Of a DNA stretch of 64,000 bases, positions 6,244-64,000 are shown one piece after another; positions within the stretch are counted from its first letter, which is position 1; each line of letters starts with the position of its first letter. Origin of the DNA: Rhizaria sp. SCN 62-66 (taxonomy: Eukaryota); contig MEDY01000002.1 in NCBI GenBank assembly GCA_001724265.1, positions 124,001-188,000 of the forward strand, read 5' to 3'. The position numbers were made by a program, and so were the translations under genes. The notes under the pieces were generated by a model. The model did not search any database. It worked only from the letters and a program-made list of their open reading frames with translations, and had not been told where the DNA came from.

Positions 6244-9200
6244 ATGAAGTTGACTATTTCGCGCATGTGCGCGTTTGCGTTTATCTCTGGCGCCGCTCTC
6301 CAGCTCACCGCCCTCACCGCCCTGGCAACCCCTGCCTCGGCCGCCGCCTCCGGTGCCCCCGCGCTCGCCCCCCGCGTCCTGGGCTACCCGCCCTCGGTCT
6401 ATGCGTCCCTGGCTGGGTCGACCTTCCGCTGCTCCGACGGCTCCGCTACCGTGCCCATCGCCGCGGTGAACGACGACTTCTGTGACTGCGCTGACGGCAG
6501 TGACGAGCGCGGCACTGCCGCCTGCGCACACCTCTCCGCCTCCCCGGCCGCCGACGCGCCCGCGACGTTCTACTGCCTCAACCCCGGGTACATCTCGTCC
6601 GCGATCCCGTCCTCGCGCGTCAACGACGGCATTTGCGACTGCTGTGATGGCGCCGACGAGCCCCACACCGGCGTCGCCTGTCCAAACACCTGCGCAAGCA
6701 AGCGCGCCGTTGACGAGGCCGGCATCACCGCCCGCCTCACTGCCGTGCGTGCGGGCGTCGCCGCCAAGACCGCGCTGACGGCCGAGGCTGATGCCAAGCG
6801 CGCAGCGGCCGCCGCGACGGTGACGGCGACGACGGCGCGCATTGAGACTGAGAAGGAGACGGTGGCCCATCTCAAGACCAAGCTCCAAATCGAGGAAGTA
6901 CGTGTATCCTCCACATATCCCGCACTCAACGAAATATAACTTGAATATTCAACTTTATTTAAGAGTTGTGTCTATCCTAATGTAATAATATATTCTTACT
7001 TTGACGAATTTTGTTGTGACATGTGCGGCACTTTGCAGGAGAAGGAGCGCGCCGTCAACGCCGAAGCCAAGGCCGCTTGGGAGGCCAATAAAGCCGCCAG
7101 AGACGCCGCCGTGGCCGCCGCGGTTGCGCCCGTGGTCGCCGAGGTGGAAGAGGTCGAGAAGCTCATCAAGGACATCGTCAGCGAGACGGCGGGCGCGGAA
7201 GCCAAGAAGGACGAGGCTGATGACATCGATCTCGACGCGATGCTCAATGAGATGATGCGGGAGAAGGGGCTGCTTCCGGACGACGACGAGCCCGCCGCCC
7301 CTGCCGCCGCCGCTAAGACCGAAACTGCTGCTGCTGCTGCCGCTGAGCCTGGGGCTGAGGCTGATGCCAAGAAGGAGGGCGAGGAGGAGGCCATTTTCTT
7401 CCCGTATCCGAAGGAGTATCAGCCTGGATACGATGCCGAGGCCGCGGCCAAGAAGGAGCAAGGTACGGATATAGCGCTTTTTTTACGTCCACATAGTGGC
7501 AAATCTTGTGTATAGCTCGCAATATGTGTGTTTTGATTGGTTTGAGTGCCTGTGCACGTTCGCCTTCCATATCCTCTCGCTTTTTTTTTTCAACCTCCAC
7601 TCAATGTTGTCACAACACTGCTTTGCTCCGCTCACTTTGCGCTCTCACACATACACACTTACACAGAGGCTGCCGCCGCCGCCGAGGCCGCTGCCGCCGA
7701 GGACGACGACGACGACGACAATGCCGCCAGCCCCGCCGTGCCGGCCGCCGATGCTGCTGCCGCTAGCAACAGTGACAGCATGAGCGACAACTTCACCCCT
7801 GTCAACACCGAGGGTACGTGGCGAGAAGAACCTGAGAAACAACTCCTGCATCGAATGATTTGAAAACTTGAACTCTTGTTTCTTCTGTGATTGAAAGGGT
7901 TAATGTAAAATGCGCAGATGAGAGACAAATAGTGAGACAAAACGAGCTTTTTTTATAGTTACGTTATAGTTTTGCACGATTTCTCTTTCAAGAACTGTGT
8001 CTTTTTTTACATAACTTGCTCGATTGTCTAAGGGGGACGGCTGCACTGCTCACCCCCCTTATCCGCGCTCACACAACAACTCTCTGTTTCTTCTTCTTTC
8101 TCGCTCTCTCTCTCTCTCTGCATCGATCTCTCTCTGGATTCTTCCCTTTACTATGTCTCTCTTTTGGTGGTCGATGTGTGACTATGTATGATTGTGTGTG
8201 TGTGTGTGTGTGTATGATGTCTCTATCTTGCGTTCTCGACTGTCTTTGGGGGTCTGGCGTGTGTGTTTGTCTCCGTCTCCCTCCACCGGCATATTGCGCC
8301 TCGCCGTGTATCTCTGCACCCCAGTCTCCACCCCCGCGCGCCTGTGGCGCTCTGTCCGCTCCTCCCTCCTCACCGCCCTCACGGGGCCACTCGTCGAACG
8401 CTTCTGCAAGCGGCCCTGGTCGAAGCTCTGCTGGGCGTTCCACCCGCTCGGTCACACTGACGACGAGGATGACAGTGCCAGAGTTGCCCGCGGCGAGTGG
8501 AACAGCGGGCAAGGGGGCGCGGATGCGGCGAGGCCGCCGGAGAACTATCGGAGCGCAAGTACGTTACTTACGAATAATTCGCAAAATGCGATTCGTTACA
8601 AGTTTGTGGCGACACGCAGACACCGGAATTGAGTACTAGTTGAGCAAAGTAAGAAAGAGAAAGAGAGAGATCACAGAGATTGAGAGAGAAACGAGAGAGA
8701 AGGAATGAATAAGCAAAGAGAAATTTGTCAGTCGTCATCCTATCAATCAAAGGTATCTCACCAAACCTATTTTTCCTACTTCCTTGCCCTCTTTGTTTAA
8801 CGCGACCTAACGTATCTGTGCGGCTTAACTTACGTCAACTGCAGAGGCGAACGTGCTGCGCAAGGACCTATCGGCGGCCGAGTCCGCGCTGTCCAAGAGC
8901 GAGACGGCTCTGATCCGCGAAACTCGTGCCCGGGATCGCCACAGTGAGTCCGACCGCGTCAAGCCCTTTTACGCGCTATCTGGACAGTGTTTCAGCACGA
9001 CGCAGGCGCAGTACACGTACGAGATGTGCTTCGACGGCAGCGCGAAGCAGCGGGAGACCTCCCATGGCGCCTCGGCGCACGGCACTTCGCTGGGCTCGAT
9101 GTCCGAGATCACCTTCGAGGGTGCGAGTGCCACGGTCAAGTTCACCGGCGGCGCCACGTGCTGGCGTGGGCCGGCGCGTTCGCTCACGGTCACGCTCGTC

Positions 9201-9594
9201 TGCGGCGAAGTGACCAAGGCCACGGCCGTGGACGAGCCATCGATGTGCGAATATACGATGCAGATGGAGTCACCCGCGCTCTGTGAGCAGACACAGGTAC
9301 GTTAAATTGTCATGATATAACACGAATAATATCCTACAACTGTGCAATTATGTTAAAATAATGTATTTGTTAGAGTTAGGGTGAAATTACATTATGTGTG
9401 GTTTGTTTGAAGTTTAACTAAATTCATATCTCACGACTTGGCACTCTTTTTTTTCTCTTTTTTTTTTTTGCGATTTGTTTTAGGTTGATGCGATCGAGAG
9501 TGCGATCAAGGGTGTGTTTAACGACTTCAATGTTAAGCCGCCCCAGGTTCCCGCTGCTGGCGCCCGTAATGGCAGTAACAAAGATGAGCTTTGA
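6244..9594 (+). CDS. PRKCSH: Glucosidase II beta subunit (PRKCSH/GTB1 family), 673 aa. Exons 6244-6897, 7039-7462, 7667-7813, 8325-8558, 8845-9296, 9484-9594
   Basis: Hydrophobic signal peptide. N-terminal LDLa-like region (FRCSDGSATVPIAAVNDDFCDCADGSDERGTAAC; FYCLNPGYISSAIPSSRVNDGICDCCDGADE). Acidic middle. MRH domain (FYALSGQCFSTTQAQYTYEMC...KFTGGATCWRGPARSLTVTLVCGE...VDEPSMCEYTMQMESPALC). C-terminal KDEL followed by TGA. All five introns are GT-AG with matching phases. Confidence 0.95.
8105..8213. repeat. Intronic (CT)n and (TG)n microsatellites
   Basis: (CT)n at about 8105-8119 and (TG)n at 8193-8213, inside the 511-nt intron 7814-8324. Confidence 0.85.
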
Positions 9595-10012: not shown

Positions 10013-10440
10013 TTACTCAAAGTCAAACTCGTAATCAACGTCTTCTTCAACAACATCATCGTTCTTCGCTACAGCACCAGTGTTTGTCGGACCACCAACA
10101 GCACTCTTCTTAGCGGTCTCAGGCGCAGCTGCGGGGAGTGTAGATGCAGTGACCGTGGGCAGGAACGAGTTGGTGTAAGTGTCCGTGTAAGTACCCGCAG
10201 CGTTGAAGCCGCCAACGTTGTTGTTGCTATTCGTGTCATCCAAGAACATGTTATCAGCGGTGATATCGACGGCGTTGTTTACGTGAGCGCTCGCAGTACC
10301 AGGGACGGCGACAGCAGCAAAATTTGCAGCAATATCATTCACCTTGTTGCTGCCATTGTTGTTGTCAAGTGAAGGAATGGCGTCCTCGATATCTTCCTCT
10401 TCAAACGCGCTGAGACGGTCACGTTGCTCACGGTCACTCA

Positions 10441-10471
<31 letters not shown>

Positions 10472-13400
10472 GTCACGCTCACTGGGCGCGTTGTTGTTGT
10501 TCGTGTTGTTCGTGGGCGTAGCAGCGGCGTAACGATCGAACGAGAACGACGTCCCCTCCTTCCAGTCAGGAGCAACGACCGGGGCAGCGCCAGCAGCAAC
10601 AACGTTGGCGTTATTGTCAATGTTGTTCTCAGTAGGAGTGTCGTTGAGCTGCTGCTGATTGGGGAATATAGACAAATAGTCGTAACCATTGGCATCGTCG
10701 ACATTTGCGTTGTACAGCGCAGAAATGCCACTTGTGACGGCAGCGTTGGTGTTGATCTTGTCCTCGTTCACAGCGTTGACGTTCTGGGTGTTCGCGTTGT
10801 TGTAGTAATCATCGTCGTCGTCAACGTACCCGCCAGGGCCAACAACACCGGCATTGACATTAACGCCGTCATCAGCGTTATCCTGAGCAGCAACAGCAGC
10901 GACAGCAGCGGGAGTCACATCGGTGTTGTCGGCAGCAGCATTTGCGTGAAAATACGTGGTGATGGGAGGTGCACTGAGCAGACTTGCATAGTAGCCACCG
11001 TCGTCATCATCATTCGTGGGGTCGGCGGCGGCGGCAGCGCCAGCGCCATGACTGTTGTTGTTCTCGTCATCATAGCCTTCGCTGGCAGCCCCAGCCTCGG
11101 CAGCCTTGTTGGTGTCGTCGAGCTCAATCTCGATATCAGCACTGTCATTGTGGTGGTTATTGCCGATAAGACTCTCGACAGCATCCTCAGCATCATCGGC
11201 CTTCATAACAGAGGCCTTCGCGTTGTTATCAGCGTAGCTCGGCAGGATACTCGGGTCAATGTCCGTCGCTGCAGCCACGGCCTCAGCCGTCACTGCGTAC
11301 ATGTTGGCCTTCGCAGCGATGCGCGCAGACAGGGAAAGCGGGTTCGTGCGAGAGTCGTCAAACTCGGCATCGTTCTCATGCTCAGGAACAGTGCCAGCAA
11401 CCGCACCAGTGGCAGCCTCGGGAACAACATCGAAATCAGCGATGTTCACAGCGTTTTCATGAGCGCTGCCCTGTTGCTGACCCAAGTGGAGAGCGTTGTA
11501 CGTCGCTGCAGCGTCACACTCCTCACCGCCGCCACCAATGCGCTTAGATTGCGCGTTAGAGGCACAGTTTTGCTCGGGCTATTCAGGTCCGTACACGTCC
11601 AAGTACGCCTGCATAACAGCGTGATGCGTTGCCTTCATCACGTGCTCAATCCGCGCACGCTTCGCCGCATCAGCGCCTTGAGGCTTGGCCGCATCCGCGT
11701 TGTCAGCAGCACCAGTCCTCGCCTCAGTGGCTGGAGCGGCAGCAACGTTATCAGCGTTGCCAGTGATGTTGGCGCTGATGTCGACAGTGCTCTCACCATA
11801 GTTCGAGTTTCGACTCTCCTCAGCGTCGGCATCGGCATCGGCCTCGGTCACAGTTGCACTCGCGGTCGCAGCTGCAGTGACTGGCACAGGCGCAGCGCCC
11901 TCAAAGCTCAGGTTCACATCGTTGTTGTTGTTGTTGTTGTTGTTGTTGACATGCACACCCGGTGCAGTGTTCTTGCTGGCTAGGTCACTGTTCATGGGAG
12001 ACGGGGTCTTGTTCGGCATCCGCACAGGCAACGCACTGACACCAGCGGCGTTGTTGCTGGCGACAAAGTCGTCGTCGTTGGCACCGACATCGACGTTGTT
12101 CATCGCAACATTGCCGGTGATTGGCACTGCGGGGGGAGCAGCGAACGAGTCGGCGTCAACAAAACCGACTGAATACGAGTTATTCGCAACGTTTACAGCG
12201 TTGAAACCCCCATGGTTCGAATTCGCCGCTGCGGAAGCGGGGACATGAGCAGGGACAGCAGCAGCAGAAGCAGAAGCAGAAGCAGGGGCAGAGATCAAGA
12301 CGGGCTCAGGAGCAGGAGTGGCAGCCGCAGTCATCAGCGTTGCGATGGGACTGCTGGTGTCGCCAGCCCCCTTACCAAGTTCTAAGTACCCCTTACCTGC
12401 ATCTAAGTGTTCGTCATCGTCGTCATGACGCCCGTCGTGGACGCAAGCAGTGATCGGGGACGGTGACGGCGACGGCACGGCGGAGACACCCTTAGACTTC
12501 TCGCCATCATCCTTAGAGCTGGACGGTTGTTGCTGCTCGACAACACCCTTGGATTGGGTGAGGGTCTGCGTGGGGTTCCGGCTGATGCTCACAGTCACCT
12601 CCCCGGTCCCGGGGACGATCGCGGCGCTCACAGTCGCTGCAGGCACCGGGACAGGCGCAGGGACCGGAGCCGACACCGGCACAGCGTTGCAGTACTGTTG
12701 CATAGAAGCGTTAGTCGCGAAGTTGTTGTTGACAGTCAGCGCAGTGTTGCTCACAGTCACCTGATTACCAACGACGCTCGGCACTGGCTGTTGTTGTTGC
12801 TGCTGTAGTTGTTGGAGTGCTTGTTGTGCAACGGCAGAGTGCGGTGGCAGCGTCATCGCGCCGTAAGTCAAGCCGCCGTCCTGTCCGAAATTCAAGCCAC
12901 CCGCGGGCCGCGCCGCGCGAGGCGGGCTCTGGGGCGGCTGCAGCGGGGCGGGGGGCGCGACGGGCAGCCCGCCGCTGTAGCCGTGCCCAGGGTGACCGTG
13001 GGCAGGCGCGGGGGCGAGGAATGACACAGGGTAGTATTGCTGCTGTTGCTGCTGCTGATGCTGATGCTGTTGCTGACGATGCTGAAGCTACAGTTGCTGT
13101 TGTTGAGGATAGTGAGGCTGTTGTTGCTGCAGGTAAGGACCTTGTTGCTGAGCGTAAGGGTACTGCTGTTGTTGGTACTGTTGCTGTTGAAAATAACCCT
13201 GAGCATTGTACGGAAGATTGTTGTTATTGTTGGGAGGCACCGCGTTTTGCACTGTTTGGTTCACAATGGCGGCAAACCACCCCGCGGGCACAGCCAGCCT
13301 TCCTTCACTGCACATATCCCCCGCGTGCCCCGAGGCGTTCGCAGCGGCAGTGGCCGCGGCGTTCGCAGCGGCAGTGGTCGCGGCGGTGTGGCTCACGACG

Positions 13401-16400
13401 CCGCCGTTCATCGGCGCTGCCATCAGCACGGACCGTGCCAATCCCTCCGCCGCCTCGGCCTTGGCGGCCGCCAGCGCGGGCCCGCGGATCGCGGCCGCTG
13501 CCACGCGCGCGTCCGCTGCCACCGCCGCAGCGGCGATGGTCGACAGCGCGGGCGCGAGCGTGTAGCGCGACGACGACAGCGCGGCGGCCTGGCTGTGCGC
13601 GGACACGAGGTAGTCGGGCGTGGTCGCGGCGGTCACTGCCATGGTGGCAGACGCTTTGTTCGTACCCGCAGCGTTGCTGGAGTTCGCCGCAGCGCCGCTC
13701 TCGCTGGAGAAGGGTGCACGGGGTGGCGGTGTTGAAGGCGGGAAAAACGCCCCCGCAGCAGCGGCAGCAGCAGCATCGACGGTCTTAGCATTGTGAGTGC
13801 TGTGAGCGTTCGCGTTAGTGTTGGCGTTCGTGGTTCTAGAGAGTAGAGGTGACGTGAGCACGACAGCGGCGACCGCATCATCCATCCTGCTCGCAGGCGG
13901 CGGCTTAACTTCCGCAGCGGGCGGCGTGACTTCGTCGACGCTAAAGTCGGTCTCAGCGCTCGCGCTGGTATCAGCGTCGAACACAGAGCGCAGCTGCTGC
14001 TGCGGTTGTTGCTGATGTTGCTTCTTCACAGCGCTGCGACTGTACCGCTGCAGCGAAGCCTGCGTGTGCGGATGCTGAGCACCAGTGACGGCGTTGCTTG
14101 CATCTGCGCCTGAGCCGTATAGAGGATGTTGCTGCGCGTATAAACTGTTGCGGTTCACTCCGGCAGCGACCAACGGCGGCACCGCAGTGTTCATCTGCGA
14201 CTGCAGCTGCTGCATCGCCTCGTTCAGCGCCGCCTGCAGCCGCTGCACCTTTTCCTCAGCGGCGCGCGCCCGCTCACTCGCCTTGCCGGCGGCCTCGTCG
14301 GCGGCGGCGCGCGCCTCGGCCCGGCCGTCCTCGCGCGCGCGCGTCACTTCGTTGCGGTGAGCCGCCTCAGTCGCCATCACGGCGCGCGCCGCCGCCGCGT
14401 CCGCGGTCGCAGTCGCGATCTCGGCCGCGGCCTTGACTTCGGCGGCAAACCGCGTCTTGAGTGGGGTAAGCTGTGCGCGCAGGTCGTCGACCTCGAGTTT
14501 GCTGTTCTCGAGCGCGGCGATGGCTTCCCGCACACGCCCGCGCTCGGCCGAGATGTCCTGCGACAACTCCGCGCACCGGTCCCCGAGCGACTTGACCTCC
14601 AGCAGCAGCCCGTCGCGCTGAGCCAGCACCTGGGCCAGCTCCCGGCTCGCCACGCCTGCCCGCGCGCGCGCCTCCGCGGCCTCGATCTCGGCCTCGGCAC
14701 GGCCACCGGCGCGGGCATCAGACACCGCGGCCGCCAGCGCGGCGCGCTCGTTCGCCAGCGTCGCCCGCTCTTGCTCAAGCACCGCGCGCGTCTTCTCGAG
14801 CGCGATTTTTTCGGTCCTGAGCGCGCGTTCGGCTTCGTCGCTGCGCTGGCGCGCGTCTTCCTCGCGCCGCAGCGACGCGGCGCGCGCCTCGGAGAGCGAC
14901 GACCGCTCGAGAAAGCGCTCGTGCTCGTGCTGACGGCGCAGCTGCGCGAGCTCGTCCATGGACCGGTTGTGCGCCTCGCGCGCCTTGGTTAGCTCGGCGG
15001 CCTTGTCACTCTCGAGCTCGCGGCGGAGGTGCGCCAGCTGCTTGTTGAAATCGAGCCGCGCCTCGGCGGCGGCGGCGGCGAGCTTGGTGCGCTCGATGTT
15101 GGCCACGCGGGCCGCCACCTCTGCGTCGGCCTTGGCCGAGAGCTCGCGCTGAAGCCGCAGCAGACGCAGCTCAAAGTTGGCCCCCGTGTCGCTGTTGTCG
15201 CCGTCCGCGGCGGCCTTTTGCTGTTGCAGAGTCGCCTCCGCGCGCTCCGACAGCTGCCTCAGGCGGGTCTCGAGGGAGCCGGCGGGCGGCAAGAGGGTCA
15301 ATAAGTCGTCAGTGCTGGTAGAGACTGTCGTAGTGACTGTGGGGGCCGCGGGCTGCGCGGAGAAGCTCTTGCAAATGACCGTGAGCAGCGAACTGCCTGA
15401 ACTCTGCTGCTGCTGCTGCTGCTGCTGATGTTGCTGTTGCTGCTGAGAGGGACTTAGATTGCTCAGGATGAAAGACTGCGCGGGGGTAAGAACAGGCACG
15501 GCTTGCGAGCCGCCGACGTGGTCGGGATCTAAGTGTCCCGCCGCCGCGGCTGTAAGAGCCTCCTTAGACGCTGCGGAGGACGTAACTGGCACGATATCAA
15601 GCACTTTGACTATGTCGGTTTCAGACAGAGAGTGGGGGCCCAGCTCCTGAGTGCGGGACTCAGGGATGAACACAGAGAGCGCCTTCAAGTACCCCTTAGA
15701 CCGCAAATGGGCCGCGATAAGCGCATTCATCGCCCGGTCGCACAGAGGACTCTCGATAACCGTGCTGTTACTGCCGCTAGCGCCGCCGCCGACCATCGCG
15801 ACAGTGCCAGCGCCAGTGCTACAGCTGCCAGCGCCAGTGTTACTCAAAGCGGGGGCTGCGGTGCCAGATAGATGCGCGCGCGCCTGCTGCTGCTGATACT
15901 GCTGCTGGTAGTGTTCCTGCGTCGCGTTCACAGGCAGTGCGGCTGAGGTCGTTAACATCGGGTTCGCGGTGACGTGAGAGACAACTTTTTGCCGCAAATG
16001 GGCTGTGAGATCGTTCGAGTGGCCGGCGCTCTTCAACGCTGATAGAAGCGCGGTCGTCATCTCAGTCGCAGACATTGTCGCGGGAGCAGCAGCGGGAGCA
16101 GGCCGCGCGGCGCCAGTCGCAGGTCGAGCCGCAGCAGAGCCAGAGCCAGCGGACGAGGCTGCGTTTGCGCTCAAGCTAGCGCGAATGTTAGCCACGGCGG
16201 TCGGATTGGGACGGGGCCTGGCGGCGGAGGCAGAAGTCTGAGAAGACGCCAGTGGGGCGGATGGGTACGGAATCGGCAAGGGGAATGCGCCGGCCGCGCC
16301 AGGACCGGCGGCGGCGCCGGTGGGGAAAGCAGAGGCGCCGTGAGCTGCACTGGGGTTGCTCGAACCGCGTGAGGCCGCAGGAGAAGGGCCCGCTGGAAGC

Positions 16401-16414
16401 CACTGGTGCGACAT
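10013..16414 (-). CDS. OFD1: OFD1-like centriole/basal-body LisH coiled-coil protein. Single exon, 2133 aa if the in-frame TAGs at 13090-13088 and 11581-11579 are read through (1108 aa if TAG is a stop)
   Basis: Ordered OFD1-like blocks: LSALKSAGHSNDLTAHLRQKVVSHV, LisH AMNALIAAHLRSKGYLKALSVFIPES, SLETRLRQL, FELRLLRLQREL...EARLDFNKQL, then a long coiled coil. Track ORFs 13088-16414, 11579-13027 and 10013-11485 share one frame and are separated only by single TAGs. The frame ends in TAA at the switch to AT-rich DNA. Confidence 0.85.
11579..11581 (-). other. In-frame TAG, putatively recoded (context YGPE*PEQNC)
   Basis: CCT GAA TAG CCC GAG CAA gives the repeat PEQPEQ if TAG=Gln. The frame stays open for 521 more sense codons. 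Confidence 0.75.
13088..13090 (-). other. In-frame TAG, putatively recoded (context QQQQL*LQHRQQQHQHQQQ)
   Basis: TAG lies inside a CAG/CAA-rich tract, with no intron-like sequence around it. Confidence 0.75.
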
Positions 16415-17019
16415 AACAAGCCAGAGCTCTGTGTTCTAAAGTCTGTGATGTGGCGAAAGCCTACGGGGTGATTAGATCGCTCAGCCGATGTGACAACGAA
16501 GAGCTGAGGAGAAAGGCGCGAGTTGAAATAGAGCAGGTTCGGAACGCGCTCTGTAGAACGAGCAATGAGCAGACAGGCGCTAATACAACGCGGCACCGCT
16601 ACTTTTATAAGCCGATATTCGTGTTAGCAGGTCAAGATTTGAAAAGAAACCTTTCTGGTAGCAGGGGATAAGGAAATTGGCGGGGCAAAGGCGAGGTGAG
16701 CAGGGCCCAACGGTCACTTCAGCAGAAAGGGATATGTGACGAAGAACGATAAAGAGTGAGATGTAAAAAGAATTTTGAAAATAAGTGTGCAAGAAAACAT
16801 AGGTTGTGGCATCAGCACTCCAAAACAATGATCAGAAACGCCACACGTCGCGTTCTCAATTCAACTTTTCGAACTGGCTCTCGTCCGTGACTGGGCCAGC
16901 CCTTCACACAGCTGAACTGAAAATACCAGTATATCAAGTCGTATCGTGCCTACATCGAGCTATTTAAGATCAAAAATTGAATATAGCGTCTAACTAATGT
17001 ATTTTTGTTATATAACACG

Positions 17020-19290
17020 TTATTTTTTCTGCTGCTCGTCGTCGCTCTCCTCCTGCCCGACGATATTTCCCTTGTCGTCCACCAGCAGCCTCTTCCGCTG
17101 CTTCACTTGCTCCAAGAACATCCTATGCGCCTGCGCCCACACCCCTTGCCCCGACGCACTGCTCGCGGCGTTGGACAGCGCCGCGGAGACAGCGCCGCCG
17201 GGCACGCGGCCGACGATCCCGCCCGTTGCAGTGGAGTCAGCCTCAGCCTCCGCGTTATGCCCATCATCCATGTTGCTGCTCATGATGCGCGCAGTGCCAG
17301 TGTGAGCGTTGGCGTTTGACTGGGCGAGCGGAACGCTGGCGCCGCCGACAAAGGCGCGCTGCCACCACATAATCAGCCCCGGTGGCGGCACCTTGCTCAC
17401 GGTCACGACAACGGCACGCATACGGCCATTAGCCGACTGCGAGCCCTTCGAGAGTGACTCTGACTGTGAGGGCTGCTCAAGAGCGAAAGGCAGCGCTGCC
17501 AACGCAGTCTCAGCCTTCGCCACAGTAGCACTGTTGACCGCAGTGAGGCTAGCGTTCACAGTCGCAGTTGTGCTAGGTGTTGAGTCAGTCGTGGTGTTGT
17601 TCAGGTCAAGGTTAAAGTCCTCAAGAGTCCACGCATGATCAATATCGGCTGTCTTAAAGGTAGGTCGCAGTGCCGCGGCCGCAGCAGCAGCCGTGCCTGC
17701 AAGCGGGGCCGAAGAAGCAGCACTAAGTCCGTCTAAGGGGTTCGACGGCGCAAGTACCCCGGCGCCGCCCTCGGACTCGTTGCTAAGACCGTCCATCAGA
17801 GGGAAAAAACTGCTGACATCATCGCCACTGCCGTCAGCAGTCCCCTTGCATTTGCTAGTATTGCCGCCGTCCGTGTCAACAATGAACGGGTACGCAAAGT
17901 GCCCGCTAAACCACTCTAAGGGGGCGGCGGAGCTACTTAGACCGCCCGAACTTACACTTCCACTTCCACTGGCAGCAGCCGCAGCGGCAGCGGCAGCGGC
18001 AGAGGAAGCCTCCGGTTGCGCCATTTGCTGAAAGACCGACTGCGGTGGCGTCAGCGTGACCGTGAGCCGGCCGCTGCTCACGGTCACCTGCACATGCTTC
18101 GACTTGAGCCCACTCGGAACAGGAACGGTTACCGTGACGGAGTGGCGGTCCTGCTTCCATGCGTACGGGGAGCCCCTTACACTGTCTAAGTGGGCACTTG
18201 AACCACTCACAGAAGAAGAAGCAAAGCTCCCACCAACGGAGGCAGCAGCTGTCGAGGCCGCAATGTGCTCAGTGCCATCTAAGGGGCCATCTAGGAGGTT
18301 GCTACTGAGGTTCCAGTCGACGGCGCCGTTCGTAGCAGCAGCAGTCAGCGCAGCGGCTAAGTACCCCGCGGTGCTCACAGTCACTTGCTGCTCACGGCCA
18401 CTCGCAGGCGTGCTCGCGTCACTCATCACGACAGTGTTGCTCCGGGTGTCCGTGTTGTTGTCGCTCTGGCGCGCGGAAGCAAGTAAGTGAGTGAGTTCTT
18501 TGGTTAACACTTCGATACGGTCCTCCGCCTGACGCTTCTTCAACAGCACCATGGCGGCCGCAAGCTCGCCAAGGTCGATGTCGCGGTCTGCCATCTCTTC
18601 TTCGCTCATCCCGCCCAGCGCGGCGTGAGCGGACGAGAACGCGGCGGCGGAGGCAGAGGAGGCGCAAGCTGCGGCGAGGTTCTCGCGCTGAAACATAAAA
18701 CGCACGCAAAGTGACAAAAAACAAACGGCAGTAGAAATAGAACAACGAATAAGTGTGAACAATAATACATTTCAAGTTATGTTTAACTTCTGTTAAGAAC
18801 AACATTCATTTAAGAGAAACACAGTGCGTCTTATCTAGGATGAAAGACGTACCTCGCGAGCAAGTTCGGTCTCGATCTCAGAAACCGTGCGGGGCGGCCT
18901 TTCGGGCCCAGCGATGATAGGCAACGTCGTCATCGTCACACCAGATGTGGTTGTGTTAGCAGTGGATGAGGCAGCAGCGTGAAATGAAGACGGGAAAGGC
19001 TGTGCAGAGCCGCCGTAGTAAAACCGTTGCTGAACGCCTCCTGCGCTGCCCACAGTCGCGAAGGCGCCGTTGGCTGTCATAGCTGCGACCGCGCCTGGAG
19101 TGGTAAAGCACAGTTCTTCGTCATCTTCTCCAGTAGCTCCCTGTCGCGCAGCGCTAATACTGGAGTTTGTTGTGGCTTGCTGTGCGCGTGCTTGCGCAGG
19201 GAGGAAGTTCTGCGGGTCGAAATCGTCCATCGTGGGCCGCTCCTCCTCAGCATCATCCCGGACACTGGAGCGGGTATTATTAGAGGACAT
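17020..19290 (-). CDS. NudC-family-like CS (p23/HSP20-like) domain protein, 701 aa. Exons 19290-18853, 18687-17020
   Basis: CS motifs in order: YAWKQDRHSVTVTVPVPSGLKSKHVQVTVSSGRLTVTL, WFSGHFAYP, DHAWTLED, VVVTVSKV, WWQRAFVG. Phase-0 GTACGT...TTTCAG intron (18852-18688). TAA stop. Confidence 0.85.
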
Positions 19291-45200: not shown

Positions 45201-45231
<31 letters not shown>

Positions 45232-48200: not shown

Positions 48201-51200
48201 CATCAACAGCAACATGATGATGGGCAATAATAATAATACCGCATTCCCCGGGTCCGATTTTTTCGGTCCCCTGCTTCCTCCGCCCGCGCCGCACCAAACT
48301 GGTCTCCCGTTCCCCACCAGCAGTCACGCGTACCGGCCGCGCTCGCGCACCCATGCTCCCAACAACACCACCAGCGGCGGCGCCTCGGTGACCGTGGGCA
48401 CCATGGGTACCGGGGGTGGTATCTCTGGCCTCGGGGCTGGTTTCGCTTTGATGCCAGCCTCCGCGGCCTCCGCCGCCGCGCTGTCAGCGCCTGGACTGTG
48501 CGCTGTTGCCGACCTCGCCAGCGCCGCTTCGCTCGAGGCGGCTTACATTCTCGCACAGTGGTGCGCGCCCGCGGCCTGGGGCGCCGGCCAGGACCTGCCT
48601 GCGCTGACGGCGCCGCCCGCGCCGCTGCCGCGCCTGCTGCCGACGGGCGGGGCCGTTGTTGTGGTCCCCGCGGCGGCGGTGTTGCGCGGCGACGGCGTCT
48701 ACCTGCTGTCTGTGCGCGCGGTCGGGGCGCGGCTGCGAGTCAAGTCGACGCTCATGGACGTGATCTCGTGCTCGTCGGGCTCCACCGTGGTGGAGGATCC
48801 GCCGACGATGTCCACGATGCAGCGGAAGCCGGTCAACAAGGCGCTCAGTACCACCACCAACGCGCTCGCGAACGCGCTGCTGTACGACAGCCCGTACTAC
48901 GACGACGCCACCGCCAACAACAACAACAGTGACAACGACTACTTCTCCACAGCGAACGGCGGCGCTAGCAGTCATACGATTGTGGGACTGACTGGCGCGG
49001 AGTTTTTCGGTCCCGCGAATCGCCATTTGTCGTTACTGACGGTCACGGCACCGGGCATTCGCCCCGCACGGCCCCCCGCGCCTCTGAACAACAGGTACGT
49101 TCCACTGTAATCTGACAACAAATTTAAGATTAGCTGGATATTTTCTAACTGAATGAAGTATTTGCTTTTGATTTGATGTTTCATATTTCATATCTTATTT
49201 TTGTTTTGTCAATGCACATCTTGAGGTATATTCAAACAATGTTGTTTTCCAGCCGCTTACACTTCAATCTCTGCCCTCATGTGCTTCGTATTTCAACCAA
49301 CTCATCACCCGCAGTTCTTCGAGGCGCCGCAGCGACTTTTTCGGTCCATCCGCGGCCACCCCTCTGGCGCAGAGTCCCCCCGCGCCCTTGTCCATCGCCA
49401 GCAACACCAACACTGGCACCGCCGCGGGCTCCGTGTTCATCGTCGGGACGACGCTCGCAGCGGCGGGCGCTGCCTCGGCGGCGGCTGGATGCGCCCCGAT
49501 CCACTTACAAACCGGTCTAAGTACCACGCCCGGCGTAAGTACCCCCGCGGTGAGTGTGAGTTTTGCGGTTTGCGCAGCGTACGGCTTCCTCGCCGCCCCG
49601 GCCGGCGGATGCTATGGCCGGACGCCCGCGGCCGCGGTGGCCGCCCGCCGCGCCCGGCTGCTGCAGTTAAACACGCTGCTGTACTCACACCAGCAGCAGC
49701 TTTCGTACCATTCCCAGCAGCAGCAGCAGCAACAGCAGCTGCAGTATCAACAACAACAGCAGCAGCAGGTTCTATGGCAAACTCCTTCTCAACAGCATCC
49801 GTCACAGCAACAGCAACCGGGACAGTTACAGGGACAGACTGTTTACGGCGCCAGCGACGGCTCTCCCGACCCCTTACCCGCCTTACTCTCTCTCGCCCAA
49901 CCCTATTCCCCCGCCGTCGCCGCCCTTCTCATCGCGTCCCACCCGCCTCTGCTGCTCGCCACAGCCACGGCCACTCTCCCGGCCCTTGCCACCGCCATCG
50001 CTACCGAACGCACTGCACTCGCCCGTGCGCGGTCGCGCTTAGATGCCGTCGAAGGGAAGATCTTTTCGGTCCTTGACACCTCCACCGCGGCTTTGCGCGA
50101 GGCGGGTGTGGTTTTACCCAGTATGTCCGTCGCAAGCCCATACGATTCCTCGGATAGCGGCTTAACTTCAGGAGCGAAGGGCGGCCTAACTTCCGCGCCA
50201 GGCAGCTTGACTTCCGCGCAAGATGCGATGTTACGCCGCCACGCGCGCGCCCGGTTTGAGAGCCGTGTTGTTGCGCTGTTGTTACACGGTTTAGACGTCA
50301 AGGAGTCGTATTTAGCACAACAACAAGCGACTGTCGTGCAACTAGCACTGACACTGGGCGGATTGGCGCAGGAGTTTGCTGTGACAATGGAGAACTATGA
50401 TTACAGCATTACAACTCTAAGTACTGCCTCCACGCAGCAGCCTTTGCCTGGTGTAAGTGGGAATGCCACACGTTTAGCTGGCGGAGTCATCCCGCCTGTC
50501 CCCTTAGCTGCCCAGAAGGCCGGCTATATCCAACAACAGCAACAACAGCAACAGCAACAATACGCTGGTGGTTTGCGCCCCCCCGTGCCCCTTGGCGCGA
50601 GCGTAAACACGGCCAGCAGCTCCGGCGGCGGCGTTCACGCCTTGTCACAGGCGCAGTTGCAGCAGTTGTCGCAGCTCCAGCAGCAGCGCCACTCCGCGGC
50701 CGCGCACTTCGCGTCTCTGGCGGCCGGAGCGCGCGCCGAGGCCGTCCGCACGCAGTTGGAGAACGATGCGGTGCTGCTGCGGCACGGGCGCGCGGCTGAG
50801 GGGGAGCTGGCTGCGCTGGCGGCCGCGGCCGGCTGGGCCACAGTCATCACGAGCAAGAGCTCGAGCGCGAGTACCAGAGGTACCGGCGGTACCACCGGTG
50901 CATGTGGCCCCTCGACTGCCGCCTGTACCGATGCGGTGAGTGCTGAGGTCGTGGTGTTGGATACCTCGGCGTTCTTTCCAGCGGCACAGAACAACGCGCA
51001 TAGCACAGCGCTCGTTGTTGCCAGTAGCAGTCGCCCCAGCACTCCGCGCATCGGCCCTGGCGCCGACCCTGGCGCTGCCGCTCTCAATAACCCTGCGAGT
51101 AGCAGTGGCGCGCCCGGCAACGGGTCTGTCGCGCCGCCGCCGATTCCGACGACGCCGCGCCGCACCAGCGTTGTTGCTGCGGCCGGCGCGAACTTTAACT

Positions 51201-54200
51201 TGAGCCGCTCTCAGACCCCGAGCAGCAGCAGCAGCAGCTCACAAGGACAGGGACCGGGGCAGTTGTCGCAGTCGCAAGTGCTGACGATTGCCCCAGGGGC
51301 TCTGATCCCTGGTGTGTCACCGACGGACCCCTGCGGCTTAATTTCCCTTTTGCTGTCCCCACATGGCACTCTCCCCGGTACGCGCACAGTGTCGTTCGTT
51401 GTCTCGAAACAAAACATCAATTGAAACTGAGTCATGATACCAACTATTTGATCTTTACCCGATTATATTATACTTCGCTCTCACGTTATCTCTCATTAAT
51501 TTTCTTTTTGTTTTTATGAAAATAGGTCAATTTTCATCGGCCGCAGCCTCTGCTTCCATGGCCGCCGCTGCCGCCGGTTACTACCCCAATCTGGCCACAA
51601 ACACTATCACCATCCCCGGCGGCCGCGCCACTCCGCTTGCCTACGCCCCAGCGCCCCCGGTTCCCACCGCAGCCCGGCCGTCCCTCTCCGCCGGAGCGGC
51701 AGGCGGCTTAACTTCCGTGGAGACCCCCGGATTAACTTCCGGTTCCGACGCCTCGCCGGCTGTTGTGGTGAGCAGCGAGGTTGCTCTCAGCACGCTTAAG
51801 GCAGGCACACTGGTTGATTTGCTCGAATACGCGCTTTTAGAGTTCAAGATTATCATTTACGACCCATCGCCGCAAATCGCTTCGGCGGCCGCTTTGTCTT
51901 TATTGCCGCTGTTGCAGCCGTTCGACTGGGAATGCCCGTTTCTGCCGCTCCTGCCCGCCGCGCTTCACACGGCGCTCGACTCCCCGGTCCCCGTGATCGC
52001 CGGTATCACGACGCTGCCAAGCTGGCTGCGCGGCCCGACTGATTTGCCGCTCGACACTGTGCTGTGGCTGCCGTCGCAGGGCCACGCACTGTGGGTGAAT
52101 CCGTACTTGCACTCGCGCACAGCTGGGCACACGTTGCTCCGCTCACGCTCCACTCTCCACGCCGCCGCCAACAACAACAACAGCAGCAACGCTGCGAGTA
52201 GTGGGAATAGCAACAACAGCAGCATTGCGAGCGCGATGCAGAAGCTTCCCCCTGAGCTGGGCACCGGCCTGGTCGGTGACGTCAACGACGACGTGTACGA
52301 CGCCGCCACGGCCCGTATCATCACCCCTACTCTGCCGCTGCGGCGCCGTCTGCTGGCTCTGCTGCAGCCGCTTGTGGCCGAGCTCGCGCGCGCCGCCGCG
52401 GGCGCCGCCGCCGCCGCTGACGCGCAGGCGGCGTGGGCGCTGGCCACTGACGCGGGTGCGGGAAGTCAGGTCGAGGCGGCCTTTCTCGCCGAGACCGCCT
52501 GGGCCCGCTCCGGCGCCAGCGCTGGCGGCGCGGGCACGCCGACGACGAGCACGGCCATGAGCGGCCTCACTGCGACAGCGGCCGACGCCGACGCCGCCGC
52601 CGCCACGGCCACGACCACGGCTGCCGCGCACGCCGCTGGCGTGCTGGATTACGACTTCGTGTACCGGTCACTCCTCGCGCACTACGGCGCGCTGTACACG
52701 GGCGCGGCGACGGCGACGACGACTACCGCCACGGGCCGCCTCTCGCCCTTCACGCCCACGGCCGCATACGTCGCCGCTGTAGATGCAATCACGGCGTGCG
52801 TCAACGGGTATCTCCTCGCGCTGGCGCTGCATTCGACGCGCACTGTCGTCGCCAACTCGATGGCGCTACACCAGGCGCTGTCCCCGGCCGCCTCCGCCGC
52901 CGCAGCAGCCGCTGCCGCCGCGAGCAGCAGCGCGGGCGCGGGTGGCATGTTTGGCATCTCGTTCAGCGGCGGCGGCGGCAGCGGCATTGGCGGCGGTTTT
53001 GCGACTCCCCAAGCGCGGCTAGACTTTCTGCACGCGCAGCTCGCGCGCGAGGATAAGCTGCGTCTTGCCGCAGCCTGCCAAGTGCTACCTGCCCTACACG
53101 CGCTCATCACCGGTGGACCCCTGGCCGGCCCGCCGCCGCCGCTGCCTGCGTTGCTGGCCCCGCTGCCAGTCGCGGTCTCCGCGGCGACCGCGGCTGGCGG
53201 GCTGGCCGTTGCGCCGCCGCAGTATTCGGCACTCACGCGTCCCCGTCTCGCGCGCGGCTTATCTTCCGCGGCAGGGAGCGGCTTGCCTTCCGACGGCGCC
53301 GCACGCTCGCCCTCGCTGCTCTCGCGCGGCAAATCCTGGGTGAAGAATCTGTTCTCTCCCTCCCGTAGCCGCCCCACGGCCGCAGACGCCGCGGCGACGG
53401 CGGCGGGCGCCGGTGTGCGCGTCGCCAGTGAAGTCACCGCGGCAGTGCCACGGGGCGCGCTGGTGCACCCCCTCGCGGCGGCGGCGCGGCTGCGGTGTGT
53501 GCCGTTCGCGGCTGACCCGGACCTTTCCGGCCTCAGCGCCGGCGCAGAAACTGGAGGGGGGAGCACCCCCTCCAGCTCTGGCTCTACTAGTGCGGTGAAT
53601 GGGTACCGTTTGCTCACGGCCGCCCCGTCGCGGTCGCTGATGCCGCTGCTGACCTCGGGGCTCGCCGCCGCCGCCGCGGCCGCCGCCAGCGCCACCGTGG
53701 CTTCCGGCCGGCCCGTCGCCGCGTCCCCGCTGGCGCTGACCCACGGGGACGACATGACGCTCGACGCTCTCTGCGCACCGCCGCTGTCCGCAGAGACCGT
53801 GGTGACCTCCCTGTTGCCACCACATTGGCCGCCGCTGCCGTCGGTCACCCCGCCGGCCTCCGCCTCCACCGCGGCGTCAGCGGCGGCAAACGCGGCGAGC
53901 GCCAGCGGCAGTGGCAACGGCAGCGGGGACGTGGACGCGTCTGCCGCGCTGGCGCCGCTGCCGCCCCAGTGCGACCTCGCGCTGCTGTCCGATCCCGACC
54001 TGGCGCCCGCCGCGACCGGCGCCGCCGCCGTGGCTGCACTCTACCCCGTCACCGAGCTGCTCTCTCAGTGGTCATTCGACGCCGCCGCGCCGTCCTTCAC
54101 AGCCGGCGAGCGGCTTTTCCTCTTCAAGTTTCGCGAAAAGGGCCAGCTGTTCCCGCACTGGCTCGAGTCGGCCGCCCAGCGCGCCGCCGACCGTACCGCC

Positions 54201-56399
54201 GCACTCGCGGGCACGGGTCCCACCGCCGCCGCGGAAGTTAGGCCGCAGGACCGGTGGTGGGCAACGGGCGGGTGGGACTGCCGGGCTCCTCTTACCGCGG
54301 GCACTGGCGCCGGTGCGGCTCACGGTCACTTTGCACAGTCGTCGGTGGGACCCGGGGCGACGGCTTACGGCGCGGGCCCCGGGTTCGGCTGGCCCCTGCC
54401 CCGCGCGGCGGCGGCGACGCTGAATATGCAGTCCGCGGCGGCGCAGAGCTCGGTGCTCGAGACCCACCGCTACTGGGGTCGGCTGCAGGCGGCTGCGGTG
54501 GCGGCGGAGGCGGCGGCAGTTGCGGCGGGGCGCGGCGTTGGCGGCGCGGCGGCGGCGATGGTCGCTGCTGCTGCTGTGTATAATGACCCTTACGCTGGCA
54601 TTCCGCCCACAACGAGCGCGAACGCTTACGCCAGCGGCGCCGAGACCAATGCTGGTGCGAGTGCGAGTGAGAGTGTGAATATGAGCACGGGATTTGGTGT
54701 GCGTCCGATCAACATCCCCCTCGCGCCGACAGTGCAGCAGCAGCAACAACTGAACAAGCAGATGTCGCAGTCGCAGCTTGTCCTACTCAACCAGTCTCAG
54801 ACGCAGCCGAATGCGCAGACTGCCCAACCGCATCAGCAGCCGAGTGTGCACCAGAGTCTGAACCAGAGTAGCGCTCAGGGTAATTTGCTGCAGCACGCAT
54901 CCCCGTCTGCCAATAATAGCTTTGCGCTGGGCCACCCGGCTGCCCACGGTCAGTCGGCCGGCGCCGGCCTGTTCGATCAGCAGCTGGGCCATGGCCAGGA
55001 CGACTCGCTCGTGCTTGCGCCTGCGGGGCTGGCCCAGTGGTTGCCGTTCCTCAACTCCGCCTCGGCCTCGCCGGCCCCCGGCGCCAACAACGCGAACAAC
55101 AACAACAATAACGACAACAACAATGCCGCGATGCCGTTTGCGCTCGGCTCCATCCCCCAGGCGCAGTCGCAGGCCCAGCTGCAGTCCCACGCGCCGCCGC
55201 CAATGGCGCCTCCGCGGACGCCGGCGCGGCCGATGTCTGCCGCGGGCGGGCGCCGGCCGCCGCCGCCGGTGCCGCAGTCAGCGCAGAAGCCCGGTGGGAG
55301 CGCCAGTCAGTTCCAATTCCAGCCGTTGTTTCTGCAACAGCCGCAGCAACCGCAGCAGCAGGCACAGACCCAGTGGCAACAACAACAGCAATGGCTTCAG
55401 CAACAACAGCAACAACAACAGCAAGGTCAGCAACAGCAGCAGGCGCTGGCGCAGACACAGGGGCAAGCTGCACAGCAGTGGAATAACGACGCTGGCCTGT
55501 TACAGTCATTCTCGACCCCTTTCCTGCCCACAATCACCGCCACCTCTGCCGCCAACGCCTCTGCCGCGGGCCTCGCGCCGCACAGCTTCACCACAGCGTC
55601 CACTGCTGCGCCTGCCCACGGCCACTTCCCGACCCACGGTCAGTTCCCTGCAGGCGGCGCTCATGGTCAGTTTGGCGGCGGTGGGCATGTGCCGGCCGCA
55701 GCGACTGCCAGCAGCGCGGCGAACTCTGCGCCAAATACTGCCACTGCTGCTGCTGTTGTTGGCGCGAGTAGCGCTGACACGATGGCGGCATTGTTGCAGC
55801 AGCAACAGCAACAGCATCAAGCAGCGTTGGCGGCATCACAGGCGCAGTCGCAGGCTCAGCTTTACAACGCGAGCAGTAGCGACAATAACGCGTATCAGCT
55901 GCAGCAGTTACAGCAGCTGCAACGACAGCAGCAACAGCTCCCTCAGTCGTTCTCAGCGGGCCCCTTACATCCGAGCACAGCGAATCCCGGTCTAAGTAGC
56001 TCTCCGATGCCCGACGCGCGCGGCACTCCCGGTCTCGGCGGCGCCAATGCGCAGATGGATCCGGCGACCCTGGTGCAGATGCTGCAGCAACAGCAGCAGC
56101 TGATCATGCTGCAGATGCAGATTCAGCAGCAACAGCAACAGCAACAGCAGCAAGGGCATGAACAGCAGGCGAACAGGAATATTAACGCTTTTGACATGAT
56201 CTCACCTTCTAGCTTTGCGAACAGCGACGGTTACCAGCAGCCCCAGTTCTCTCAGTCGCAGCAGCAGCAACAGCAGTTGCAACAGCAGCAGCAGCAGTAC
56301 TTGCTGCGGTCACTGCCGCAGTCAACAGTCGCGTCTCCGGGCCCGAGTGAGAGCGGCCTGGGTATGTTCGGCGGCTATCCTGGCTACCCACAGATCTGA
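38652..56399 (+). CDS. DENN-domain protein (putative Rab GEF) with very large low-complexity insertions. 5722 aa with read-through of the TAG at 40782. Exons 38652-46372, 46584-49094, 49315-51377, 51526-56399
   Basis: uDENN-like LFDQIIIV, ITFKYP, LLPFILP, VYGLTL. cDENN APRLLTVTSRYPFF and LLEFKIIIY...LLPLLQPFDWECPFLPLLPAALHTALDSPVPVIAGI. dDENN-like FLFKFREKGQLFPHWLE. Three AT-rich GT-AG introns with matching phases (2,2,1). GCCATG start and TGA stop. Confidence 0.85.
40782..40784 (+). other. In-frame TAG, putatively recoded (context QQLQLHEY*RQATAMLQQKQQ)
   Basis: Joins ORFs 38415-40784 and 40800-46421, which share a frame and lie 15 nt apart, inside a Q-rich region. Confidence 0.7.
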
Positions 56400-63700: not shown

Positions 63701-64000
63701 GAACGTGATACACAGGTGGTTACGGAAGTAGAAGTAACCATACACACGGACGATGTTGCTCTTATGCTCACGGTCACGGTTCATCAGATGCTCGAGAATG
63801 CGGATCTCCACCAACGCTTGGTGGTGGAAGCGCTTCTTGTTGCGGATCATCTTGAGTGCGACGATCGAGTCCTTTTTGTAGTCATACACACGTGCAACCT
63901 GACCGAAGGAGCCCTTGCCGTACATCGCAAGAACTTCATACCGGTACTCAATATGGTCACCAAGCACGAACTTGTAGTCGCCACGCTCGTCATCGTACCC
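59417..64000 (-). CDS. DYRK2: Dual-specificity tyrosine-regulated kinase, class 2 (DYRK2/3/4-like), 5'-truncated by the window edge, with a ~1200-aa low-complexity C-terminal tail
   Basis: DH box GYDDERGDY, GKGSFGQV, VALKMIRNKKRFHHQALVEIRIL, IHCDLKPENILL, DFGSSC and activation loop YTYIQSRFYRSPEVILG. TAA stop followed two codons later by TGA. Confidence 0.95.

Follow-up and report, generated by a model that had tools for sequence, protein, structure and literature searches.

The 12-mer GCTCACGGTCAC recurs on both strands of unrelated coding sequences in the 64-kb stretch of Rhizaria sp. SCN 62-66 DNA analysed here (contig MEDY01000002.1, positions 124,001 to 188,000; this whole stretch of 64,000 nucleotides is hereafter referred to as the window, and all counts given below were obtained within it). 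We consider it about an even chance (probability of about 0.5) that this sequence, in the degenerate form (T)GCYCACRGTCAC, is a DNA-level word, the double-stranded sequence of which is kept, rather than any peptide motif, RNA signal or mobile element. The window contains 11 exact copies, eight on the plus strand and three on the minus strand, falling at 9 loci, and the word is its commonest 12-mer, simple repeats of one to four bases aside. Dinucleotide-preserving shuffles contained a mean of 0.01 copies, and none of the 100 shuffles attained 11. A further 20 copies have one mismatch and 29 have two, and the degenerate form is present 21 times, against an expectation of 0.08; the corresponding densities are 0.17 per kb for exact copies, 0.33 per kb for the degenerate form and 0.48 per kb for copies with no more than one mismatch. 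The first-pass annotation, drawn up from the letters alone, was right about the position and strand of all 11 perfect copies, for which it had also expected about 0.01 by chance; the one-mismatch form GCTCACAGTCAC that it reported is present at 12587, 12749, 18373 and 41202, and its attribution of the exact copies to six genes is about right, judging from open reading frame (ORF) and domain content. These copies lie in a glucosidase II beta-like exon, a gene for a LisH protein, a gene for a CS-domain protein, an ORF of 3,400 codons, a plus-strand chain of DENN domain-containing ORFs, and a DYRK kinase gene.

The gene models are ORF-based, and the coding set used for the null models consisted of 48,999 nt of stop-to-stop ORF segments, with 14.5 kb of the window lying outside such segments. 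The ORF segments contained 10 exact copies and 20 copies with one mismatch, and these values were compared with three types of coding shuffle, each performed 200 times. Shuffling of synonymous codons, which keeps the proteins, gave means of 0.37 exact and 4.2 one-mismatch copies, codon permutation gave 0.005 and 0.5, and an Euler shuffle keeping all codon pairs gave 0.20 and 1.9; none of the 200 shuffles of any type attained the observed values. Thus, the excess persists under the codon-pair-preserving null that had been proposed as a check on the initial claim (10 exact copies against 0.20, with 0/200 shuffles attaining 10). The two-mismatch class, with 28 members in ORFs, is close to background (null means of 8-21). 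All 31 copies with no more than one mismatch are coding; they are listed below with their strand, their orientation relative to the gene and the peptide encoded.

9182..9193, plus strand: exact copy, sense in the plus-strand exon 8829..9302 (glucosidase II beta-like, PRKCSH_1), reading LTVT in RSLTVTLVCG
10426..10437, plus strand: exact copy, antisense in the minus-strand ORF 10016..16471 (LisH protein), reading S-DRE-Q
17395..17406, plus strand: exact copy, antisense in the minus-strand ORF 17023..18771 (CS-domain protein), reading VTVS
18056..18067, minus strand: exact copy, sense, within the CS domain, reading LTVT; forms a 12-bp inverted pair with the copy at 18076
18076..18087, plus strand: exact copy, antisense, within the CS domain, reading VTVS; second arm of the inverted pair, after an 8-nt spacer
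30093..30104, minus strand: exact copy, antisense in the plus-strand ORF 20387..30685, reading R-DRE-R
39339..39350, plus strand: exact copy, sense in the plus-strand ORF 38331..46418, reading AHGH, 21 nt past the one-mismatch copy at 39318
41079..41090, plus strand: exact copy, sense, reading AHGH; outer arm of the nested inverted repeat 41079-41157
41146..41157, minus strand: exact copy, antisense, reading S-DRE-R; outer arm of the nested inverted repeat 41079-41157
54318..54329, plus strand: exact copy, sense in the plus-strand ORF 51438..56396 (DENN-domain protein), reading AHGH
63766..63777, plus strand: exact copy, antisense in the minus-strand DYRK kinase gene, within the kinase domain, reading R-DRE-H
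10149..10160, minus strand: one-mismatch copy GCCCACGGTCAC, sense, reading PTVT
12587..12598, plus strand: one-mismatch copy GCTCACAGTCAC, antisense, reading VTVS
12749..12760, plus strand: one-mismatch copy GCTCACAGTCAC, antisense, reading VTVS
12992..13003, minus strand: one-mismatch copy GCCCACGGTCAC, sense, reading AHGH
15375..15386, minus strand: one-mismatch copy GCTCACGGTCAT, sense, reading LTVI
18373..18384, plus strand: one-mismatch copy GCTCACAGTCAC, antisense, reading VTVS
18390..18401, plus strand: one-mismatch copy GCTCACGGCCAC, antisense, reading GRE, 17 nt past 18373
25699..25710, plus strand: one-mismatch copy TCTCACGGTCAC, sense, reading LTVT
26263..26274, plus strand: one-mismatch copy GCTCACGCTCAC, sense, reading LTLT
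32955..32966, plus strand: one-mismatch copy GCCCACGGTCAC, sense in the ORF 30687..33464, reading AHGH
39318..39329, plus strand: one-mismatch copy GCTCCCGGTCAC, sense, reading APGH
41097..41108, plus strand: one-mismatch copy GCTCATGGTCAC, sense, reading AHGH; inner arm of the inverted repeat
41125..41136, minus strand: one-mismatch copy GCTCACGGTAAC, antisense, reading YRE; inner arm of the inverted repeat
41152..41163, minus strand: one-mismatch copy GCTCACGCTCAC, antisense, overlapping the copy at 41146 by 6 nt
41202..41213, plus strand: one-mismatch copy GCTCACAGTCAC, sense, reading AHSH
44812..44823, minus strand: one-mismatch copy GCTCACCGTCAC, antisense, reading DGE
45125..45136, plus strand: one-mismatch copy GCCCACGGTCAC, sense, reading PTVT
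45143..45154, plus strand: one-mismatch copy GCTCACGGTCAA, sense, reading LTVK, 18 nt past 45125
45776..45787, plus strand: one-mismatch copy ACTCACGGTCAC, sense, reading LTVT in LLTVTSRYPFFPL
48388..48399, minus strand: one-mismatch copy GCCCACGGTCAC, antisense in the ORF 46540..49107, reading VTVG

Translation confirmed the four readings initially attributed to the word (AHGH, LTVT, VTVS and DRE, depending on strand and frame), and the copies were not confined to one frame or one strand, the other outcome that would have refuted the initial claim: the 31 copies were distributed between the AHGH (8), LTVT-type (9), VTVS-type (6) and xDREx-type (8) frames, with 17 in the sense and 14 in the antisense orientation relative to the gene. 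Two frames contained none of the 31 copies, the antisense frame with a TGA and the sense frame encoding SRS (xGC-TCA-CGG-TCA-Cxx). The probability of 0/31 copies in the SRS frame is 0.001 under equal use of the five open frames; this frame requires TCA twice, and TCA accounts for 5% of Ser codons. Four unrelated peptides, all of them translations of one DNA string, are each enriched by a factor of 10-50. AHGH was found nine times, against 0.18 expected from amino-acid composition, LTVT four times (0.28 expected), VTVS six times (0.34 expected) and DRE six times (0.57 expected), the latter with the CGT codon in 5/6 cases. The codons of the word are often non-preferred ones (CGT, 17% of Arg codons; GCT, 20%; GGT, 20%). 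The first-pass annotation suggested that the word may explain the frequency of AHGH in these proteins; 7/9 AHGH peptides are encoded within one mismatch of it.

Four of the 11 exact copies lie within Pfam-matched segments, which make up an estimated 4% or so of ORF length. The copy at 9182 was missed by the ORF list, and the plus-strand exon containing it carries a PRKCSH_1 domain (E 7.5e-22); here, RSLTVTLVCG aligns without gaps opposite RSTTVRLLCG of human glucosidase 2 beta. In a loop of the DYRK kinase, the homologues have NDRE, RDAE and NDPE opposite RDRE, again without gaps. The sequence encoded by the inverted pair 18056/18076 in the CS domain, VTVSSGRLTVTL, can be aligned gap-free to the corresponding strands of a small heat-shock protein and a CS-domain structure. 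None of these three domain loci, which together hold four exact copies, has extra sequence relative to homologues, and, because the alignments are gap-free, the copies there are not insertions and arose in place. They sit at variable residues in the glucosidase II beta and DYRK alignments. Given the domain peptides, the probability of the exact codons, hand-computed from codon usage, is only about 0.006-0.019 per site; the word is thus maintained at synonymous positions within conserved domains. The initial claim of a phenomenon at the DNA level, as opposed to a peptide motif, is therefore upheld by the synonymous and codon-pair nulls, the frames, the orientations, the rare codons and the synonymous-site copies in conserved domains.

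Alignment of the 31 copies revealed a T at position -1 in 19 (p 6e-7) and no A at either -1 or +1, with no further conservation of the flanks. Because the flanks share only these features, the unit is 13-14 nt long, and not a piece of a longer element. Single mismatches are clustered, with T3C found five times, G7A four times and G7C once, such that 10/20 fall at positions 3 and 7 (p 6e-4); 13/20 are transitions. The ratio of observed to expected CpG is 1.10 in ORFs and 1.11 outside them. As CpG is not depleted, position 7 is best regarded as a soft position rather than as a site of methyl-CpG decay, and CpG decay found no support as the source of the G7A variants (ratio of 1.10). The word is not palindromic, as comparison with its reverse complement, GTGACCGTGAGC, shows. 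It resembles GNTCAC written twice, and a hexamer microsatellite was considered and rejected: GCTCACGCTCAC is present in two copies, GGTCACGGTCAC in none and the swapped order, GGTCACGCTCAC, in one. The copies are solitary or loosely paired, and Tandem Repeats Finder (TRF) gave only three two-copy arrays, with differing periods. A longer repeat or mobile element was likewise rejected, given that the flank logo consists only of the T at -1 and that a repeat scan of 38.3-49.2 kb gave only trinucleotide-type families.

Our preferred explanation starts from copies that are single and dispersed, in either gene orientation and without common flanks, and that have formed in place, with no insertion, at points where the imposed residues are acceptable to the protein. 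Within conserved domains, the word fixes synonymous positions, sometimes with rare codons, and in unconstrained low-complexity stretches it writes AHGH, LTVT, VTVS or DRE into the protein; the frame with a TGA stop and the frame with two rare TCA codons are empty. The force responsible may be a sequence-specific process at the DNA level, most likely an asymmetric DNA-binding activity reading about 12-13 bp, with soft positions Y3 and R7. Binding could be coupled to repair or conversion that is biased in favour of the word, or to selection for its presence, with protein and codon constraints then filtering the sites at which it settles.

Several observations weigh against this explanation. All the evidence comes from one 64-kb window, and neither a binding protein nor a modification or repair activity emerged from it. 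The copies are clustered and not independent, as shown by the 11 exact copies falling at 9 loci, and their spacing is irregular, ranging from 17 nt to 9.4 kb. Their density is uneven: two genes with a high GC content at third codon positions (GC3 of 0.82-0.88) have none, the CS-domain gene has the highest value, at 2.9 per kb, and density decreases with GC3 (Spearman -0.56, p 0.056). The relative numbers of exact, one-mismatch and two-mismatch copies would also fit a past burst followed by decay. None of the 31 copies with no more than one mismatch is found in the 14.5 kb outside ORF segments; such an absence is odd for a chromosome-wide binding site, which would be cheaper to keep outside genes. 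A copy of the degenerate form with two mismatches does lie between two genes, at 19403. Finally, the short-range pairs and two hairpin-forming inverted arrangements point to a part played by local copying. The first of these arrangements (18056-18087), in coding sequence, has 12-bp arms and an 8-nt spacer and forms a perfect hairpin (DNA folding z -2.6), and the second (41079-41157), also in coding sequence, is a nested stem of 13 + 9 bp (DNA folding z -3.1); both fold better than shuffled sequences.

Other dispersed words were sought by comparing every 10-mer present six or more times in ORFs with the codon-pair-preserving shuffles. The three top dispersed, non-tandem families were the 12-mer word, ATGTAAGTACCC and GGCYTAACTTCC, the remaining high scorers being local hexamer arrays. 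The second word, (A/G)TGTAAGTACCC(C) (hereafter GTAAGTACY), resembles the consensus 5' splice site and is 13-20 fold above the codon-pair null. Its 16 core copies are all in ORFs, 12 antisense and 4 sense, and use four frames (NVST in the sense orientation; GTY, YLH and VLT in the antisense orientation), with rare codons. The third word, GGC(T/C)TAACTTCC (hereafter GGCYTAACTT), is up to 30 fold above the same null; it is read mostly as GLTS in the sense orientation (8/11 ORF copies), always uses a rare TTA or CTA Leu codon, and is often paired at a distance of 24 nt. Neither word has conserved flanks, and close pairs occur for both of them, too. The copies are as follows.

10187, 40686, 45249, 45678, 49535 and 60008, plus strand: second word, GTAAGTACY
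40167, 42382, 42410, 42654, 43155, 44833, 45932, 45953, 47053 and 48073, minus strand: second word, GTAAGTACY
453, 8822, 13902, 40432, 45027, 45396, 45606, 50159, 50183, 51705, 51729 and 54235: third word, GGCYTAACTT

The 12-mer lies within 40 nt of the GTAAGTACCC word in three pairs, against a roughly estimated expectation of about 1.6. The idea of a splicing signal, in which the 12-mer would supply a branch-point-like CTCAC and copies of ATGTAAGTACCC would be genuine 5' splice sites, found no support, as both strands of single long ORFs are used; excision of the candidate mini-introns would break the frame (e.g. 43 nt at 49535). None of the three words has a copy wholly outside ORF segments, whereas an equal density would predict 15.9 copies for all three and 6.8 for the two AT-richer ones (P 0.001). 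Composition is estimated to cut the non-coding expectation about four-fold, which is insufficient once the other two words are counted. The two AT-richer words would be favoured by the composition of the non-coding DNA (GC 0.46; e.g. 33.5-38.3 and 56.4-59.4 kb), yet they are absent there. It is conceivable, albeit rather unlikely, that a small vocabulary of 12-14 bp words (GCYCACRGTCAC, ATGTAAGTACCC and GGCYTAACTTCC), at least one of them polar along the chromosome, is maintained specifically at synonymous sites of exons, in spite of codon preference, through a sequence-specific DNA-level drive or self-marking system, as a eukaryotic counterpart of uptake, Chi and KOPS words.

The main rival to our preferred explanation, which we regard as a serious contender while judging it unlikely on balance, is that the word has no function and results from the copying of short tracts in coding DNA prone to repeats, through slippage, template switching during replication or very short ectopic conversion, such that a unit of 12-20 nt spreads in both orientations and tolerated copies survive. 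The window is saturated with CAG/CTG, GCC and AAC repeats, in both orientations within one ORF, and pairs of the word 17-21 nt apart are frequent (18373/18390, 39318/39339, 41079/41097 and 45125/45143). The inverted pairs at 18056/18076 and 41079-41157 fold into hairpins, three loci of the word have surrounding repeats for which TRF gave periods of 21, 18 and 12 nt, and the word is denser in low-GC3, low-complexity ORFs. Local copying accounts for the pairs and the hairpins. Nevertheless, the copies in the three domains swap residues one for one, with no change in length, which the pasting of tracts does not predict. The nine loci lie in at least six unrelated genes and have only 12-13 nt in common, whereas conversion needs flanking homology. 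Perfect hexamer repeats of the type produced by slippage are rare (GCTCACGCTCAC, 2; GGTCACGGTCAC, 0), and the word has no copies in non-coding DNA, although microsatellites occur there. This last observation also bears on the possibility that the word was left behind by an element that moved or was inserted (the end or footprint of a transposon, an introner, or 12 nt inserted in frame from a template), as non-coding DNA is the most tolerant of insertions. Twelve nucleotides amount to whole codons, tolerated in any phase lacking a stop, the TGA-containing frame is empty and the inverted pairs look like terminal repeats. Nonetheless, we found no conserved flanks, no target duplications and no consistent inverted architecture, the pair 18056/18076 being divergent and the pair 41079/41146 convergent, and the three domain loci, with their four copies, have no added residues relative to homologues; an insertion relic is thus very improbable. 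Selection at the peptide level, on AHGH, LTVT, VTVS and DRE as low-complexity or beta-strand peptides, together with codon or codon-context bias and no force acting on the DNA, is close to refuted. LTVT and VTVS are indeed ordinary beta-strand peptides, which in the CS and glucosidase domains occupy homologous positions of strands, and AHGH is also written with other synonymous codons (6/9 are not the exact word). Such selection is, however, difficult to reconcile with the 10 exact copies observed against 0.37 after synonymous shuffling and 0.20 with codon pairs kept (0/200 attaining 10), with the joint enrichment of four unrelated peptides that are exact translations of one DNA string, or with the frequent use of non-preferred codons (CGT, GCT and GGT). 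A direct test goes against each of the peptide-level, mobile-element and microsatellite explanations.

A special case of our preferred explanation is a polar word of chromosome architecture, or "self-marker", similar to Chi or KOPS and read on one strand by a machine linked to replication or repair. The split between plus and minus strands was 8:3 for exact copies, 13:7 for one-mismatch copies and 22:7 for two-mismatch copies, giving 43:17, roughly 2.5:1, for copies with no more than two mismatches (p 0.001), or 29:11 (p 0.006) after the merging of neighbours within 100 nt. At this locus level, the split was 21:5 in plus-strand genes and 8:5 in minus-strand genes. With copies counted individually, 31 were sense and 10 antisense in plus-strand genes, against 6 and 12 in minus-strand genes (Fisher p 0.003). 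The word therefore favours the plus strand whatever the direction of the gene, which is suggestive of polarity on the chromosome scale but does not establish it. When no more than one mismatch is allowed, the bias comes to only 21:10 (p 0.07) for copies and 14:6 for loci, the two-mismatch class includes background hits (null mean of 8-21), and a single 64-kb window cannot show a switch in polarity. To our knowledge, no polar chromosome-word system exists in eukaryotes, and we consider this special case improbable.

The window consists of eukaryotic nuclear DNA with a GC content near 0.6. Its long ORFs carry SAM and B-box, LisH, CS, DENN, DYRK2-type kinase and glucosidase II beta (PRKCSH_1) domains, and introns are present. 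The exons are GC-rich (GC3 of 0.62-0.88) and are set apart by AT-richer DNA (GC 0.46), as in the large intergenic gap containing a (TGTC)n microsatellite of about 29 units (36209-36324) and in the AT-rich intron (46419-46583) separating two GC-rich ORFs of the DENN gene. The kinase domain encoded by the DYRK gene (59417-64000, minus strand) has best identities of 63-67%, with top matches including a jakobid, arthropods and Thecamonas, and the only match for the CS-domain protein (17023-18771, minus strand) in a collection of 5.8 billion proteins was the protein itself; the protein collections contain no close relatives of the organism. A resemblance of the three words to segments of 5S rRNA was considered and set aside, their orientations being inconsistent. 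No RNA families were detected in the window with Rfam at the gathering threshold, and no tRNAs with ARAGORN. CAG/CTG, GCC and AAC runs abound, in both orientations within single ORFs, and encode poly-Q, poly-A and poly-N; examples of (CAG)n/(CTG/GCT)n, (GCC)n and (AAC)n runs are found at 40830-40981, 42048-42110, 41645-41691 and 44054-44098. There are also hexamer arrays, including (CCAGYG)n and (CAGGCG)n.

Five in-frame TAG codons, at 13088-13090 and 11579-11581 on the minus strand and at 29711-29713, 29777-29779 and 40782-40784 on the plus strand, each link two long ORFs in the same frame, giving ORFs of 2,152, 3,433 and 2,696 codons. The next base is C for four of these five TAGs, and one lies within a CAG run. 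Neither TAA nor TGA occurs in frame over about 16,300 codons, and the visible gene ends terminate with TAA or TGA. TAG may be a sense codon, perhaps for Gln, or be read through. Two ORF ends, in the 30681 and 3339 regions, read ...G|GTAGT..., suggesting 5' splice sites of the GTAGT type, and the TAGs at these two ends are therefore probably intronic.

Among the papers listed by a full-text literature search, the matches to the 12-mer and its reverse complement concerned cloning, nanobody or antibody work; that search, part of whose matches were listed, yielded no description of the word as a genomic word. We know of no complex, non-tandem 12-mer with such behaviour in coding regions that has been described in a eukaryotic nuclear genome. 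In bacteria, over-represented words that shape proteins (uptake sequences, Chi and HIP1) each point to a dedicated DNA-handling machine. Should the pattern prove to be genome-wide, it would imply a sequence-specific process, as yet unknown, acting on exons, which measurably alters the proteome (AHGH being enriched 50-fold) and places a non-translational constraint on the synonymous sites of conserved genes.

The genome of Haemophilus influenzae is about 1.8 Mb in size, and inverted pairs of uptake sequences in bacteria sit in terminators; we know of no DNA-uptake machinery in eukaryotes. According to a study of uptake sequences (PMC2817400), the H. influenzae genome contains 1,471 copies, 35-65% of uptake sequences lie outside ORFs, and, in coding regions, the frames used track the acceptability of the codons and the copies occupy spots tolerated by the protein. 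The uptake signal sequences (USS) of Pasteurellaceae and the DNA uptake sequences (DUS) of Neisseriaceae have much in common with the word described here: all are non-palindromic sequences of 9-12 bp, the copies of which are single and scattered over both strands, in several coding frames, with acceptable codons favoured, tolerant residues used and the encoded peptides enriched (PMC2817400), and their densities are of the same order (0.17 exact or 0.33 degenerate copies per kb here). Unlike the hosts of these sequences, the host here is a eukaryote, with SAM/B-box, DENN, DYRK2 and glucosidase II beta proteins and introns, rather than a competent bacterium. Uptake sequences are common between genes, whereas 0/31 copies with no more than one mismatch are outside coding sequence here, and the inverted pairs lie within genes and not in terminators.

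HIP1, GCGATCGC, of cyanobacteria is an 8-bp palindrome with a methylation site, hugely over-represented in any frame and thought to be kept by a process at the DNA level. Both HIP1 and the word are short and over-represented irrespective of reading frame, but the word is 12-13 bp long, asymmetric and eukaryotic, and the CpG ratio of 1.1 provides no hint of methylation-linked repair. Chi and KOPS are short, asymmetric bacterial words, frame-independent in genes and strand-skewed, with RecBCD and FtsK as their machinery. The word is likewise short, asymmetric and over-represented in genes whatever the frame, and may share their excess on one strand (43:17 with no more than two mismatches), but its skew is weak and measured over 64 kb, and the machinery for Chi and KOPS is bacterial. 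Given its eukaryotic host, its lack of palindromic symmetry and the absence of copies between genes, the word does not belong to the USS/DUS or HIP1 families, and probably not to the Chi/KOPS type, although it behaves like uptake sequences. The analogy with uptake sequences and HIP1 drawn in the first-pass annotation consequently stands for behaviour in coding regions, where the resemblance is to uptake sequences; it does not extend to family membership, to the palindromic nature of HIP1 or to copies outside coding sequence.

The nearest eukaryotic parallel is provided by the coding repeats of Eimeria. These repeats are described (PMC4199364) as tandem units of 3 or 7 nt (CAG and telomere-like), encoding homopolymeric amino-acid runs in several frames and tolerated in structurally neutral parts of proteins, with 3.2% in Pfam domains; a function at the DNA level was suggested by the authors. 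By contrast with these tandem repeats, the word is a solitary, complex 12-mer with 4/11 exact copies in Pfam-matched segments (PMC4199364 for the comparison). The CAG, GCC and AAC runs of the window resemble the Eimeria repeats, and the word itself has in common with them that both are eukaryotic repeats at the DNA level with a preference for coding sequence, present in multiple frames.

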